Sequence record: OR352940.1 | Length of the DNA: 64,000 nucleotides | Direction: 5' to 3' (one strand) | DNA from: Escherichia phage AV110 | Shown: positions 23,781 through 29,933 of the stretch, piece after piece | How positions within the stretch are numbered: position 1 is the stretch's first letter | Layout: each line of letters begins with the position of its first letter | Notes under the pieces: generated by a model | Told to the model about the DNA's origin: nothing | Database searches by the model: none | Seen by the model: only the letters and a program-made list of their open reading frames with translations | Position numbers and translations under genes: made by a program

Positions 23781-23978
23781 ATGTTTAAACTTCCATCGTT
23801 AATCAACGCTATTAAAGGCAATAAAAAGAAAACTGCTATCGCTGCAATAGTTGTAGGTGGCATTATTTCATGGAACTTCGGGATTGCACCATTGTTAGTT
23901 GCCCATGGTATTATAGTTCCTTCTGTTCCATTGGATACTGTAGTTGATTTGGCCTTTGCTATTATAGGGCTTGTTTAA
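23781..23978 (+). CDS. small membrane protein (65 aa), plus strand
   Basis: Strong RBS AAGGAGATATTATG; two hydrophobic segments; convergent with gene 61; one of very few credible plus-strand genes. Confidence 0.45.
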   Translation: MFKLPSLINAIKGNKKKTAIAAIVVGGIISWNFGIAPLLVAHGIIVPSVPLDTVVDLAFAIIGLV

Positions 23979-24997
23979 ATCTTCGAATAACGAGATAATC
24001 TCATTTTAGCATGCAACCCACTTGAAATATTCTGTTTCATATATTCTAAAATTTCTTGTGGTGTTGCATTTTCTTTCATTACCATATCATTCACATCCTT
24101 TGAACTCCATGGAGCTCTATCCCAGAACATGACACGTTCGCCTGCATCAACTAATCGCTTCATGCGAGCTATAGTATCCGGATGCCTAGGTTCATTATCC
24201 ATTACCCATACCCGACGTTCTTTAAATGGTACCACATCTAAATCTATCGAGCCGCCTGTAATAGCGATTGCATTGGGTATGAATAAACTATCAATAGGGC
24301 CTTCCATTACCCAGACGTCTCCTTCCTTAACACGTTCAACACCATAAATTTTTGTTGCAGACTCAAACGCTTTAATAGTGATATATTTCTGAGGAGCATC
24401 TTTACGAAGTGCACGTCCTTGGAATGACTCGGCCTTCCCATCTTTATTAAAAATAGGAATCACTAAACGTGGTTCGGGGATCTCTTTCTTATACGTACCA
24501 GGTTGAATCTTGTTGACCAATTTGGGCCATTCTAATGTGAACCATAATCTGTTCCACGATTCTTTAGGAATACATCTAGACTTAACATATTTCACAATAG
24601 GATGCTCTTCAGGCAACTTGTCCAGACGAGAACAAGACGGCAAAGAATTTATAGTCTTTTTCTCTGGCTCCGGCTTAGCTTCAGGAACCTTTTCAATCTT
24701 TGGTTCCATTCTAGCTTTTTCTTTACGAACTTCCATTAGATACTCGCGATAAAGCTCTTCATCATACTCTTTTAAGTATCCGGAAATTGTATTGTGGTAT
24801 TGACAGTTATAGCAATGCACATTACCAGGAGTACCGCCATAATACCAACCGCGGGCTTTCATTGCATCTGTCTGAGAGTCGCCACAAACTGGACAACGAA
24901 ACGTTAATTTAAATGTGCTTGAATTATTGATTTGTCTAAAACGAGGGAGGTGAGAAAACGCACGATAAGCAAATTCATTATCTATCCATTCAGCCAT
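23975..24997 (-). CDS. 61: DNA primase gp61
   Basis: 340 aa; WIDNEFAYRA...FRCPVCGDS zinc ribbon and TOPRIM-like core matching T4 gp61 as recalled. Confidence 0.9.
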   Translation of the reverse strand: MAEWIDNEFAYRAFSHLPRFRQINNSSTFKLTFRCPVCGDSQTDAMKARGWYYGGTPGNVHCYNCQYHNTISGYLKEYDEELYREYLMEVRKEKARMEPKIEKVPEAKPEPEKKTINSLPSCSRLDKLPEEHPIVKYVKSRCIPKESWNRLWFTLEWPKLVNKIQPGTYKKEIPEPRLVIPIFNKDGKAESFQGRALRKDAPQKYITIKAFESATKIYGVERVKEGDVWVMEGPIDSLFIPNAIAITGGSIDLDVVPFKERRVWVMDNEPRHPDTIARMKRLVDAGERVMFWDRAPWSSKDVNDMVMKENATPQEILEYMKQNISSGLHAKMRLSRYSKI

Positions 24998-25036: not shown

Positions 25037-25531
25037 TCACAACTTATTAATATTTACTTTAATTCGCTTTCTTTTCTTGGAAGGAATTTGTTCGGGACCT
25101 TTATTTACAATTGCACCTGTAGTAGTTCCTGATGCAATAGCTTGAGGATTGCCGTCTGAATCACCAGCAACCATATCCTCAAATAAAGGGAGTTCTTTAA
25201 ATATTTCTTTCTGTTGTTCTTCCGTAATGTTATAGCGTGAAGCTACAGCACTCCAGGCAGACATCATTGAGGCCATTCCATTAAGACCTGGAACAGTGCT
25301 CATCATTCGCTTCATTGAACGAACTGAAGCATGAAAAGGTGTATAAGCCGCTTTCTCTTCAGGAGTGGAAGGACGTTTAAGAACACTTCCACGTTCATCG
25401 ATGATTTTGGCTTCGTATGCTTTCCATTCGGTAAAAGGTTTTTGCATTAGTCGAATAAACTTATATGCATAAACAGAATCTATTGCAGTGTTAATAATAC
25501 CCATAGGTACCTCCTGAGTATATTTAATCAA
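25037..25531 (-). CDS. hypothetical protein (164 aa)
   Basis: ORF in position of T4 61.1; basic C-terminus KKRKRIK. Confidence 0.5.
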   Translation of the reverse strand: MIKYTQEVPMGIINTAIDSVYAYKFIRLMQKPFTEWKAYEAKIIDERGSVLKRPSTPEEKAAYTPFHASVRSMKRMMSTVPGLNGMASMMSAWSAVASRYNITEEQQKEIFKELPLFEDMVAGDSDGNPQAIASGTTTGAIVNKGPEQIPSKKRKRIKVNINKL

Positions 25532-25721
25532 TTACAAAGATTGCTTTGTCACCATTTATATCTGTGACTTCATATGTAGTGCCTTCATACTGTGGAATAT
25601 TCCAAATTACACCATCATTAGCTTTTACGCTAATATGGCATTGGTGTTTTGAAACAACTTCATAATCTTCAAAACTTGTAAAAACACTAATTTTAGAACC
25701 AGTGCAAATTGCAGTAGTCAT
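25524..25721 (-). CDS. hypothetical protein (65 aa)
   Basis: Short ORF coupled to neighbours. Confidence 0.4.
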   Translation of the reverse strand: MTTAICTGSKISVFTSFEDYEVVSKHQCHISVKANDGVIWNIPQYEGTTYEVTDINGDKAIFVID

Positions 25722-25722
25722 T

Positions 25723-26382
25723 TTAACCTCGATTCATAAATGCATTAAATATTTGGTCATCAACAGAAATTTCTAATTCGACTTCAATTGCTTCAGCTTT
25801 TTCTTCAGGTGGTAATTCGTATCCACACACTACAATTTTTTCATCGATATCAAAATATACAGAAGCAATACGATTAATGTTATTTTCAGTTAAGTCCAAA
25901 TCAACATCAACATCTTTTTGGCCTACACTTAGAGGATAACTAATACGGGTTATTTTATTATCTTTAACAAAGAGTCCACCAACATACTCTGTACTACGTT
26001 TGAAGTTTACACGTTTCCGAATTGAAAGATATGATGCATCTTTACCGTGAGCTCGGCTCATAGGACATAATGAATAGCTAGAATAAGAGATGTCAAATCC
26101 TACACCTTCAATATGAGCCAACGTGTCATGATTAAACCAATTATAATCATATGCCAAATCCATTATATTGTAATATGTGAAAGGCACTGGATTAACATCA
26201 TATGTTGTACCTTTAAAATCTGCCCAGGCAACGATTTCGTTATCTTTAACAATTACAAAAATTACACCAATATGATATCCACGATTGTTTTCATCAGGCG
26301 TTATATTATAACATTGTGCATCAGGAAATTTACCGTATTTAAACGGTGGATTTTTGTGCATATAATAAATCATATTATTCAC
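25723..26382 (-). CDS. hypothetical protein in 61.2 position (219 aa)
   Basis: Position corresponds to T4 61.2, which I recall (not verified) as the anti-DarT factor adfA locus. Confidence 0.5.
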   Translation of the reverse strand: MNNMIYYMHKNPPFKYGKFPDAQCYNITPDENNRGYHIGVIFVIVKDNEIVAWADFKGTTYDVNPVPFTYYNIMDLAYDYNWFNHDTLAHIEGVGFDISYSSYSLCPMSRAHGKDASYLSIRKRVNFKRSTEYVGGLFVKDNKITRISYPLSVGQKDVDVDLDLTENNINRIASVYFDIDEKIVVCGYELPPEEKAEAIEVELEISVDDQIFNAFMNRG

Positions 26383-26668
26383 CTGTGATTTCGGTTACGA
26401 TATCTTTGTTATCGAAATTAGGGTCACAATACAAAACATAGTTGTACTGCATGGTACCACCAGACTTAAGTTGTTCAACAACTTTATTAACCATATTAGG
26501 ACGGTCTCGTTTAGTGATGTTCATGATATCAGAGAAGATTTGTTGTTCAACATCTTCTTGATTTGCAGTCATTGACCACTCACAGAGGTCTTTATCATAA
26601 CCTGCCGTAACTGGAGCCGGTGCACATGATACTGCAAGTAAGATTGCTGCCAATGATAACTTTTTCAT
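26375..26668 (-). CDS. sp: periplasmic protein Sp (spackle)-like
   Basis: 97 aa; signal peptide MKKLSLAAILLAVSCAPAPVTA; size and position as T4 sp (61.3); own early promoter. Confidence 0.55.
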   Translation of the reverse strand: MKKLSLAAILLAVSCAPAPVTAGYDKDLCEWSMTANQEDVEQQIFSDIMNITKRDRPNMVNKVVEQLKSGGTMQYNYVLYCDPNFDNKDIVTEITGE

Positions 26669-26697: not shown

Positions 26698-26727
26698 ACT
26701 ATACTATAGTCCATCTATAATGTAAAC
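26698..26727 (-). promoter_or_regulatory. early promoter (GTTTAC-18-TATAGT) for sp
   Basis: Upstream of sp-like gene. Confidence 0.45.
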
Positions 26728-26731
26728 AAGT

Positions 26732-26980
26732 TTATTCTTTTTCGCGAATAATAATTACTTGTTGAGGCTGCTGAGCAGATTTCTTTTCGGCAACGATAGA
26801 CCAAATTAAAGTTCCAATCCAACCAACCATCGTCCAGTTAAAGAGTAAAGATACAAAGAAGATTGCTGTTGTGCTTTTTGTGCCACGAATAAGTGCGATT
26901 ACCCAAGGCAACATGTAAATGATGATTGAACCAATACCTGCGATTAAAACTGCTACTGAACTAGCTACGAATAATTCCAT
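26732..26980 (-). CDS. small inner-membrane protein, superinfection-immunity (Imm)-like
   Basis: 82 aa, two TM segments; pattern YMLPWVIALIRG...VGWIGTLIWS resembles the superinfection-immunity family; own promoter. Confidence 0.5.
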   Translation of the reverse strand: MELFVASSVAVLIAGIGSIIIYMLPWVIALIRGTKSTTAIFFVSLLFNWTMVGWIGTLIWSIVAEKKSAQQPQQVIIIREKE

Positions 26981-27008
26981 GTTAATTTCCTCTTGATTTG
27001 TTATGTTT

Positions 27009-27038
27009 ATAGTATCTTGTTTTAACTTTGGTGTAAAC
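27009..27038 (-). promoter_or_regulatory. early promoter (GTTTAC-18-TACTAT)
   Basis: Upstream of Imm-like membrane gene. Confidence 0.45.
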
Positions 27039-27041
27039 CAA

Positions 27042-27410
27042 TTAATTAAATTTGTTTAAACGTTCAATACACTGGACGTAGTTATTCGCGATTTGTTTCT
27101 GGGTAGGCTCTTTACCAGTTGTTTCAACATAGCGAATGAATGCGATTTCAGTAGCCTGTAGACAATGTTCTTTAACGCGTTGTTCTTTTGTCAATGCTAC
27201 AGTATCAGAATCACGATAACGTTGAGCATGAGCATCAGCTTGAATCATTCGATTACCTACAGTAACCGGGTCTTCCACTTCAACTTTAGGTTGCTCATAT
27301 TGTTTAACATTCGGATTGTAAATCAGTTGGCCGACGTTATTAGGAATAAAGCCATGGGCGCCACATCCGGTTAATCCAAATACCATTGCTAAAGCGATTA
27401 ATTTTTTCAT
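27042..27410 (-). CDS. lipoprotein (122 aa)
   Basis: Signal peptide with lipobox MVFGLTGC; own early promoter and GGAA RBS. Confidence 0.55.
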   Translation of the reverse strand: MKKLIALAMVFGLTGCGAHGFIPNNVGQLIYNPNVKQYEQPKVEVEDPVTVGNRMIQADAHAQRYRDSDTVALTKEQRVKEHCLQATEIAFIRYVETTGKEPTQKQIANNYVQCIERLNKFN

Positions 27411-27437
27411 TTCAATTTCCTCTGTAGTTGATAGAAA

Positions 27438-27467
27438 GATAGTAACACAGTATGTGGTGCTTGTAAA
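27438..27467 (-). promoter_or_regulatory. early promoter (GTTTAC-18-TACTAT)
   Basis: Upstream of lipoprotein gene. Confidence 0.45.
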
Positions 27468-27481
27468 CAGCTATTTTAAAA

Positions 27482-27691
27482 TTATCGAAAATCTGCTTCG
27501 AAAACTTTCTCGTCATTAACAAATGCTTTAACTAATGCTTTGTTCACTTCAGCAAGTTGTACCGCAACCCACTCGATTTCTTCACGGTCACCTGATAACA
27601 TGATATCTTTAGTGAACATCTCACCGCTTTTAAACCAACCGATAAAAGTAACTTTAGTTAATTTGCTCATATTTCCTCGCAAAATGCCCAT
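27482..27691 (-). CDS. hypothetical protein (about 62-69 aa)
   Basis: Position near T4 dmd (61.5); assignment not supported by sequence. Confidence 0.4.
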   Translation of the reverse strand: MGILRGNMSKLTKVTFIGWFKSGEMFTKDIMLSGDREEIEWVAVQLAEVNKALVKAFVNDEKVFEADFR

Positions 27692-27909
27692 TCAGCGTGA
27701 TAAACTGTAGCGCCTTTAGTATCATTCATTTGAACTACATCTACCGGAGAAATTACTCGATAGAGACGTGGTTCACCTCCATAAGAGTGTGCTGCTCGTC
27801 CTGCATAAATCTTTGCTAAACCGATATCTTCAGTAAAGAATACACGATCCAAGTTTTTCTTACGTCCAGTTTCAGACAGAACTCCTGTTTCTTCAGGAGG
27901 ACAAAGCAT
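27667..27909 (-). CDS. hypothetical protein (80 aa)
   Basis: No RBS at listed ATG; a 14-codon mini-ORF with good RBS lies just upstream in another frame. Confidence 0.35.
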   Translation of the reverse strand: MLCPPEETGVLSETGRKKNLDRVFFTEDIGLAKIYAGRAAHSYGGEPRLYRVISPVDVVQMNDTKGATVYHAEWAFCEEI

Positions 27910-27999
27910 GTTTTCGATGTTAGCTGAACTACTTGAACCGTTTAAATTCTGCTTTACAATCGATGGTTTTCATTTTGTTCTCCAGTAGTTGATAGGTCT

Positions 28000-28490: not shown

Positions 28491-29933
28491 TTAAAATTTT
28501 AACTCATTGGCTAAGCTATCTAGGTCAGCACGTGTTGCTTTGGCTTTACCTACGCGTTCCGTACGATTCACCTCTGCCTGACGCATCTGAGCACCTGCGT
28601 TTTCATTTACTGTGTTAGGTGTGTTCATGCCTTCTTGCTCAATCTCAACCCATTTCTGATTGCCTTTACGTACACCCATCAGGAATTTATTCCACTTATT
28701 CTTATCACCATATCGTGATTTGATTTGTTTGATAAGTTGTTGTTCAGCTTGTGCAAGTTCTTCGGTTTCAATTACAGCCAACATGAAATCTGCCGTTGCT
28801 GGTAAACCTGCTGATTCTGCGATATCACTCATGTTCATGTCTGAAGCATCCCATGCTGCACGTCCTACTTGAGCTGCAGTCCATAGAACTGTTTCAGATT
28901 CTACTGCTAATGCACGAAGTTCTTCTGCGATAGCTTTAACTAATGTGTAGCTATTTTCAGTGTAAACTCTGATACGACAAGACCCACAAATACCTAAGTA
29001 ATCAACCATGATTACAGATGGCACAAAGTTCTTCTTAAGTTTTAACTCATTAAGCAATGCACGGAATGTATTAGCATTAGCTCCGCCAGTAGGATACTGT
29101 TTAACTACTAAACGTCCTAATGTTGTTTTTGAACGCCATTTTTCCATCTTGGCTTTATATTCAGCATAAGATACGTTACCATCATCGATATCATCGAGTG
29201 ATACGTCAAGCATGTTTGCATCTATACGCTTAGCACAAACTTCTTCAGCCATTTCCATGGAAATATAAAGAACATTATGCCCTGTTTGAAGATAATCTGC
29301 AGCAAGTGAACAAAGGCCTAAAGATTTACCGACGTTAACACCAGCCATTAAAACGTTTAGTGTACCGGTTTCAGCACCACCTTTAGTGATTTTATTCAAA
29401 ATGTTTAATTTGAACGGGACCTTACGTGCTTTGTTCAGATAAGAAAGCCAGCGTGCTTCATAGTCTTCCATCCAGTCATGTCCAACATAACTATCAAACG
29501 AAATTGAAAGTGCTTGACGCATAATATCAGGAATAGCTCCTACGTCAGGCATTTTCTTGTTACGTTGTTCTGGAGGTAGTTCAGCATTAGACTGAATCTC
29601 AATGATTTTGGATGTAGCATTATACATCGCTTTTTGCTGGACATATTTCTCAGTTTCTTTAACCAACCATTCATGGTCTTCAGGAGTATCAGCCAATTTT
29701 TCAATTAGGTCTGAAGTTCCTTTATATTCGGCTTCAGTTAAAGAACTGTTATCTAAAGCCACCTTTAACGCATTGATAGATGGCATTGCATTATATTCGT
29801 TAACGTGGCTCTTTATAATTTTAAAGACATTTTTTGCCGGTCCACGCTCAAAATACTCAGAATCCATATAAGGCCAGACCTTAGAAAAATAAGCCTGGTC
29901 GTATACTAGATGAGACAAAATAATTTCTACCAC
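28491..29933 (-). CDS. 41: replicative DNA helicase gp41 (DnaB-like)
   Basis: 480 aa; Walker A GVNVGKS and RecA-like core; size and position as T4 gp41 (475 aa). Confidence 0.9.
   Translation of the reverse strand: MVEIILSHLVYDQAYFSKVWPYMDSEYFERGPAKNVFKIIKSHVNEYNAMPSINALKVALDNSSLTEAEYKGTSDLIEKLADTPEDHEWLVKETEKYVQQKAMYNATSKIIEIQSNAELPPEQRNKKMPDVGAIPDIMRQALSISFDSYVGHDWMEDYEARWLSYLNKARKVPFKLNILNKITKGGAETGTLNVLMAGVNVGKSLGLCSLAADYLQTGHNVLYISMEMAEEVCAKRIDANMLDVSLDDIDDGNVSYAEYKAKMEKWRSKTTLGRLVVKQYPTGGANANTFRALLNELKLKKNFVPSVIMVDYLGICGSCRIRVYTENSYTLVKAIAEELRALAVESETVLWTAAQVGRAAWDASDMNMSDIAESAGLPATADFMLAVIETEELAQAEQQLIKQIKSRYGDKNKWNKFLMGVRKGNQKWVEIEQEGMNTPNTVNENAGAQMRQAEVNRTERVGKAKATRADLDSLANELKF

Follow-up and report, generated by a model that had tools for sequence, protein, structure and literature searches.

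Escherichia phage AV110 (sequence record OR352940.1) was analysed over a single stretch of 64,000 nucleotides, referred to here as the window. The window derives from a Mosigvirus (an RB69-like T-even phage). Over 6.1 kb it matches the Shigella phages JK42 and JK45 best, at 98.4% identity, and locally APCEc01 is nearest, showing 10 differences over 1171 nt. The genes of the region are ordered 41, a homologue of ORF041c, a truncated homologue of ORF040c, dmd, imm.1, imm, sp, adfA, a 65-aa ORF, a 61.1-like gene, and 61 (Table 1). This order is the same as in RB69 and corresponds to the T4 order sp-61.2-61.1-61. The gene under study directly follows sp and precedes 61.1 and 61 on the same strand, and the T4 61.2 slot to which a preliminary description of this DNA had assigned it is therefore correct.

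Table 1 Features of the region surrounding adfA, with positions given along the window.
Feature	Position	Strand	Evidence and remarks
Gene 41	28491-29933		
dmd (RnlA/LsoA toxin inhibitor)	27482..27670	-	Pfam Dmd, E=4e-20; JK42 annotates 189 nt here
Candidate sigma-70-like promoter, TTTACA-17-TATAGT	26698..26726	-	Consensus scan, 10/12 matches; imm-sp intergenic gap
sp (spackle)	26375..26668	-	Pfam T4_Spackle, E=7e-42; stop TAA at 26377-26375, 1 nt from the adfA ATG
Shine-Dalgarno-like AGGTGA	26379..26384	-	5 nt upstream of ATG 26373; sequence read
GTG opening the mechanical 219-aa ORF	26380..26382	-	Inside AGGTGA, upstream of the sp stop codon
adfA CDS, orthologue of RB69/T4 61.2	25723..26373	-	216 aa plus stop, 651 nt; Pfam, PHROG, and gene calls of relatives
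Internal ATG, the RB69 RefSeq start	26359..26361	-	RB69p034 (639 nt, 212 aa) aligned to the window
Codon 164 (RB69 numbering), CGT = Arg	25870..25872	-	Alignment with RB69 (R) and T4 (H); codon extraction
65-aa ORF, RB69ORF033c homologue	25524..25721	-	PHROG 3249, E=3e-33; begins 1 nt past the adfA stop
Primase gene 61	23975-24997	-	

At its maximal extent the reading frame runs on the minus strand from a GTG at 26382 to a TAA stop at 25725-25723, a length of 219 codons. Chance ORFs of this length are expected at ~0.03 per window in DNA of 37% G+C, and this rarity, together with a full-length match to the Pfam AdfA family, confirms that the ORF at 25723..26382 is a real gene. An antisense ORF (26113..26388, plus strand, 91 aa) was rejected, as it is unsupported and lies wholly inside the strongly supported adfA. 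The extent given in the preliminary description (25723-26382) is accurate, but the length of 219 aa is probably not: translation probably begins at the ATG at 26373, which gives a protein of 216 aa, and the GTG marks only a mechanical maximum. This ATG coincides with the annotated start of T4 61.2 and with the start of the Pfam model, and the corresponding 651-nt call is found in 17 of the 18 Mosigvirus records compared, including those of JK42, HX01, and Bas47. The GTG is annotated as a start in none of the relatives compared (RB69, T4, and the Mosigvirus records). In the RB69 RefSeq record the gene starts four codons further in (212 aa; ATG 26361 here), and no Shine-Dalgarno-like motif was seen before this internal ATG when the sequence was read. 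The published "R164" numbering refers to the RB69 RefSeq protein of 212 aa; residue 164 is residue 168 of the 216-aa protein.

On the basis of its sequence, the gene is adfA, the Mosigvirus (RB69-type) orthologue of T4 61.2. The encoded protein matches the Pfam family PF23813 ("AdfA, Anti-DarT factor A") over the complete model (positions 1-211 of 211) with an E-value of 6.5e-122 and a score of 405 bits, compared to a gathering cutoff of 27, and it matches PHROG 3781 with an E-value of 7e-132. It aligns without gaps to RB69 gp61.2 (NP_861724), the founder of the family, with 98% amino acid identity (207 of 212 residues) and 97.3% nucleotide identity, and it is 68% identical to T4 gp61.2. The identification of the gene as 61.2 (adfA) proposed in the preliminary description is thereby confirmed, with similarity to both the T4 and RB69 proteins. 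With RB69 AdfA the window protein shares the Arg-164 codon CGT, an acidic C-terminal insert (AEAIE), and the position before the 65-aa ORF, 61.1, and 61, while, apart from the placement of the start, it differs by five substitutions (A5P, N14D, N23D, N27R, and S147G). T4 gp61.2 belongs to the same Pfam family, occupies the slot after sp, and conserves the core and the C-terminal motif DDQIFNAFMNRG, but it has His-164, neutralises DarT1 when expressed in trans, is ~37% identical over the N-terminal 40 residues, and does not have the 5-residue acidic insert. The gene has already been characterised and named and has its own Pfam family, so the identification is correct but ordinary. Most of the phage records compared still label adfA a "hypothetical protein", and the value for annotation is that the gene can confidently be named adfA, with the R164 allele.

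A search of 5.8 billion sequences yielded 16 AdfA clusters at 90% identity, and an exhaustive profile search with HMMER, covering 1.84 billion representatives at 50% identity, returned one full-length sequence and five fragments only, with no remote homologue. Outside the T-even phages, no relatives of AdfA were detectable by sequence or profile searches. A scan of IMG/VR recovered six full-length adfA loci, which is too few for a census, and we therefore used cultured-phage records, 486 of which carry adfA; their hosts are almost all Escherichia, Shigella, Yersinia, Citrobacter, or Salmonella.

Only 1 nt separates adfA from each of its neighbours, sp and the 65-aa ORF (the latter annotated in RB69 and its relatives), so the three are probably transcribed together. 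The sigma-70-like sequence between imm and sp is a candidate early promoter of sp-adfA and the genes downstream. Further along, dmd forms part of the island between genes 41 and 61, and the dmd-tifA-adfA region was named an "anti-TA island" by Srikant et al. (PMC9391042). Two genes for superinfection exclusion, imm (Pfam Imm_superinfect) and imm.1 (DUF5481; lipoprotein-like signal), occupy positions 26732-27410 on the minus strand, beside sp as in RB69; T4 has neither imm nor imm.1 between dmd and sp. Because imm and imm.1 are located inside it, the 41-61 island joins superinfection exclusion with anti-toxin functions.

Other differences from RB69 were observed within this island. From the imm.1 start to the dmd stop (27411-27481, intergenic), the whole gene for RB69 gp61.4 (RB69p038; 70 aa, Pfam DUF7279, PHROG 2375) is absent, with ~206 bp missing right after dmd; the T4 slot after dmd holds tifA (61.4), which encodes a ToxN inhibitor. 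The gp61.4 gene is also absent from JK42, and other close relatives are ~206 bp longer over the region, so the presence or absence of gp61.4 is apparently polymorphic among Mosigviruses. At 27667-27973 on the minus strand, the homologue of RB69ORF040c (105 aa, PHROG 2110, function not assigned) has lost 11 bp compared with RB69 (GATTTTTTATC, near 27942); this deletion shifts the frame after ~10 codons into a TAG stop and leaves an 80-aa ORF starting at an internal ATG (27667-27909). As JK42 and RB69 have an intact gene of 318 nt, this looks like a pseudogene specific to this lineage, or else an error of sequencing. The N-terminus that is lost includes KIFYHGSS, with the motif FYHGS, and we considered an Arr-like ADP-ribosyltransferase as an identity for RB69ORF040c; this found no support, with no Pfam match up to an E-value of 10. 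Lastly, the 61.1-like gene (25037-25504, minus strand) is a single ORF of 468 nt, as in JK42, HX01, and others, while the RB69 record splits the region into gp61.1 (279 nt) and ORF032c (192 nt), and T4 61.1 is only 165 nt; the split may reflect either an RB69 frameshift or a genuine difference.

For the function of AdfA we rely on published work for DarT1 binding and neutralisation, the effect of the R and H alleles, and the role of AdfN, while family membership, synteny, allele, and selection were computed here. RB69 is blocked by DarTG1 and escapes by the single AdfA change R164H (Johannesman, Carlson and LeRoux, PMC11257639), in agreement with the statement in the preliminary description that escape from DarTG maps to 61.2/adfA. 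In a bacterial two-hybrid assay, RB69 AdfA-R164 showed no association with the catalytically dead DarT1(E152A), while the R164H form associated strongly; the R164 form was described as non-functional or non-neutralising, and R164H neutralises DarT1 (PMC11257639). The support for the interaction between AdfA and DarT1 consists of the two-hybrid assay and rescue of toxicity, and residues besides 164 probably modulate AdfA activity (PMC11257639).

In the window, codon 164 is CGT, as in RB69, and T4 has His at the aligned column. The residue numbering is cross-validated by Bas47 (AlbertHofmann), which has R at this column, as PMC11257639 states. The window AdfA thus does not carry the His-164 needed for binding and neutralisation of E. 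coli DarT1 according to that study. We infer that the five substitutions relative to RB69 AdfA leave the R164 phenotype unaltered, and, by extension from RB69, the window AdfA-R164 is expected neither to bind nor to neutralise the reference DarT1. The preliminary description had proposed an anti-defence gene; this holds for the identity of the family, but not for an effective counter to the reference DarT1, given that Arg-164 is the wild-type, non-neutralising state of RB69 (PMC11257639).

The best explanation, which we consider very probable, is that the gene is an adfA orthologue belonging to a family of DarT1-binding inhibitors and is present here in an Arg-164, non-engaging state. AdfA would be a ~25-kDa acidic cytoplasmic protein (its pI is 4.85, and that of tail residues 186-216 is 4.05) produced from the gene string sp-adfA-61.1-61. 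When active, it would bind the DNA ADP-ribosyltransferase DarT1 directly and thereby block the toxin; it would leave ADP-ribose on DNA and counter the DarTG1 toxin-antitoxin defence stoichiometrically. Residue 164 would set specificity, with the Arg form found here predicted not to bind the reference E. coli DarT1, and a single G-to-A transition (CGT to CAT) would give His, the DarT1-binding and neutralising state.

Other DarT-resistance routes of known chemistry are enzymatic (a macrodomain or NADAR in DarG, and NADAR in AdfN), and AdfA could in principle work in the manner of DarG or AdfN, undoing or preventing the ADP-ribosylation of DNA as an enzyme instead of inhibiting DarT stoichiometrically. 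This appears highly improbable, as Pfam gave no macrodomain or NADAR match for the window AdfA, a profile search of PDB sequences with AdfA returned as its best result a chance match to a dCMP deaminase (E=0.28), and the gain of two-hybrid binding through the single substitution R164H in a predicted helix points to an interface and not to a catalytic site. In the AlphaFold2 model, which is beta-rich with three helices, residue 164 is placed within a predicted helix spanning residues 163-174 (216-aa numbering; local pLDDT of ~84). Overall confidence is low (pLDDT of 63.5, pTM of 0.50), which makes structural arguments on AdfA weak, and no fold was recognisable for the family.

The further proposal of the preliminary description, that the sequence state of adfA would predict DarTG sensitivity, is contradicted by published results. 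In a set of 17 Tevenvirinae, adfA was present in 13 and absent from four, with H164 in ten and R164 in Bas46 and Bas47, and neither carriage of adfA nor its allele correlates with DarTG1 sensitivity (Johannesman et al. 2024, PMC11257639). Bas46 and Bas47 are DarTG1-resistant despite R164, and T4 adfA (H164) rescues RB69 in trans, yet T4 with adfA deleted is still resistant (PMC11257639). The protective factor, both necessary and sufficient, is the NADAR ADP-ribosylglycohydrolase AdfN (gp30.3), and the DarTG1 sensitivity of RB69 is attributed to a frameshift in its 30.3 (PMC11257639). The adfA allele alone is thus unfit for predicting DarTG sensitivity, as adfN (30.3) must be inspected. By tblastn, adfN (T4 gp30.3) is absent from the 64-kb window (best E=1.8), as are T4 gp30 and gp30.2 (best E=0.23, for gp30.2). 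Homologues of gp30.3 were found in 1510 records of the phage collection, and 1503 of these cover at least 80% of the protein; Mosigviruses with full coverage (residues 1-152) include S143_2, SHSML-52-1, ZQ3, and mogra. Given these homologues, our prior expectation is that AV110 has an intact adfN and would be DarTG1-resistant regardless of adfA, and plating on DarTG1 hosts should depend on adfN, outside the window. For host-range prediction the lesson is negative, with the adfA allele superseded by the discovery of AdfN.

Deletion of adfA from T4 gives no DarTG1 phenotype even without adfN (PMC11257639), the gene is conserved under purifying selection across the 486 phage records, and it sits between the sp/imm genes and the primase gene. 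These observations could reflect a primary role elsewhere, for example in DNA replication or linked to the membrane, with DarT binding by the H164 form as a side activity. We consider such a DarT-unrelated function unlikely: the neighbours dmd and tifA encode dedicated toxin inhibitors of the "anti-TA island" (PMC9391042), and adfA is dispensable, since T2 naturally lacks it and four of the 17 Tevenvirinae tested are without it (PMC11257639).

We compared residue 164 across the family. The cluster representatives with R164 all belong to the RB69-type group; H is the state of T4-type and RB51/RB68-type representatives, and N that of a single one. In the phage collection, a 26-aa peptide was matched exactly by 59 records in its R form and by 30 in its H form, and ~62 more records had one mismatch to the R peptide and two to the H peptide, for example JK42 (V168I) and PhAPEC2 (V168A). 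As these near-matches carry R together with another change, frequencies of ~79% R and ~21% H are implied for RB69-type adfA. Both states are common at residue 164 in near-identical backgrounds, which is a minor new point. We extracted 21 RB69-type genes for further analysis, deliberately over-sampling H alleles. The proteins encoded by F31 (R) and by phi25-307 or SQ17 (H) differ at residue 164 only, and the His codon of ESh27 is CAC, not CAT. With codon 164 masked, a neighbour-joining tree over 1.17 kb (12-20 differences, no bootstrap) contained one pure H clade and a mixed clade in which H sequences (phi25-307 and ZQ3) are sister to R sequences (ST0 and PHB12). The mixed clade requires at least two state changes or recombination, although with so few differences and no bootstrap the tree is only suggestive.

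Measures of selection indicate that the gene is maintained in both states. The dN/dS of the window adfA relative to RB69 is 0.13, and pN/pS over the 21 RB69-type genes is ~0.10; this strong purifying selection argues that the R allele is not a decaying gene. Independent assortment is seen for the N-terminal 40 residues of AdfA, its core, the 105-190 block, and its tail. In the window adfA, an N-terminus of the RB68/APCEc01 type is joined to a remainder of the RB69 type, and the gene is considered mosaic because four of its substitutions (A5P, N14D, N23D, and N27R) reproduce that N-terminus. RB51/RB68-type AdfA has an RB69-like N-terminal half and a T4-like C-terminal half with H164, and in the Tequatrovirus REP3 an RB69-type core carrying R164 is followed by a tail of the T4 type. 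As judged from these alignments, at least three exchangeable segments make up the adfA mosaic.

The Arg-164 form may alternatively be an active inhibitor tuned to another DarT homologue or another toxin, with R and H kept as alternative specificities. This reading was already proposed by the discoverers of AdfA and AdfB (PMC11257639, PMC10760071), and several of our results are consistent with it: R164 is the majority state in RB69-type adfA, R and H are both found in intact genes under strong purifying selection and on otherwise identical proteins, and the two states are interleaved in the local codon-masked tree. However, the R164 form is not known to bind any DarT or other target, RB69 with adfA deleted is viable, and no phenotype of the R allele is described in PMC11257639, PMC10760071, or PMC9391042. 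Furthermore, the interleaving, seen in a 1.2-kb tree with 12-20 differences and no bootstrap and in a sample deliberately enriched in H alleles, could be the result of recombination and not of repeated selection. We regard alternative specificities as possible but doubtful. Similarly tentative is the broader proposal that residue 164 is a toggling specificity switch, its R and H alleles coexisting at ~4:1 on haplotype backgrounds both near-identical and different, in a three-module mosaic gene that passes between Mosigvirus and Tequatrovirus. Were the Arg form to neutralise another DarT or toxin, adfA would be a balanced polymorphism tracking the diversity of E. coli DarT, and the window allele would be aimed at a target different from the reference DarT1. 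The R/H polymorphism and the shuffling of modules provide a small, testable handle on the evolution of anti-toxin specificity.

As a DarT1-binding inhibitor, AdfA can be compared with several known phage systems. AdfB (Gp145 of Vibrio phage ICP1) is likewise a small protein of a phage, presumed to act on DarT as an inhibitor through direct contact, and it too has active and inactive natural alleles one residue apart (D62/G62) that were found through escape mutants; its sequence is unrelated to AdfA, however, with <15% similarity, and it has been proposed to mimic the C-terminal part of DarG (PMC10760071). AdfN (T4 gp30.3) also counters DarTG1 in the same phages, but it is an enzyme that strips ADP-ribose from phage DNA, does not bind DarT1, is unrelated in sequence, and is encoded elsewhere. 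Dmd and TifA (T4 61.5 and 61.4) are neighbouring small early proteins that bind host TA toxins directly (RnlA/LsoA and ToxN, respectively); they act on other toxins and have no sequence relationship to AdfA, and the window encodes dmd but not the RB69 61.4 gene.

The slot after sp is not always occupied by adfA. In a T-even-like IMG/VR contig of ~170.5 kb (L011, positions 1108-1545), and likewise in the T-even-like contigs L010 and L012-L015, a different protein of 145 aa (PHROG 8539) is encoded directly after sp. It shares with AdfA only the last 14 residues (SIDDQIFNAFMNRG, 13 of 14 identical), with a very weak resemblance to the AdfA N-terminus (E=0.13), and a third family, PHROG 4122, also matches the AdfA tail. 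Because the downstream gene differs in the L010-L015 contigs, the shared tail is not merely a recombination junction, and it may represent a functional C-terminal motif of otherwise unrelated occupants of this slot.
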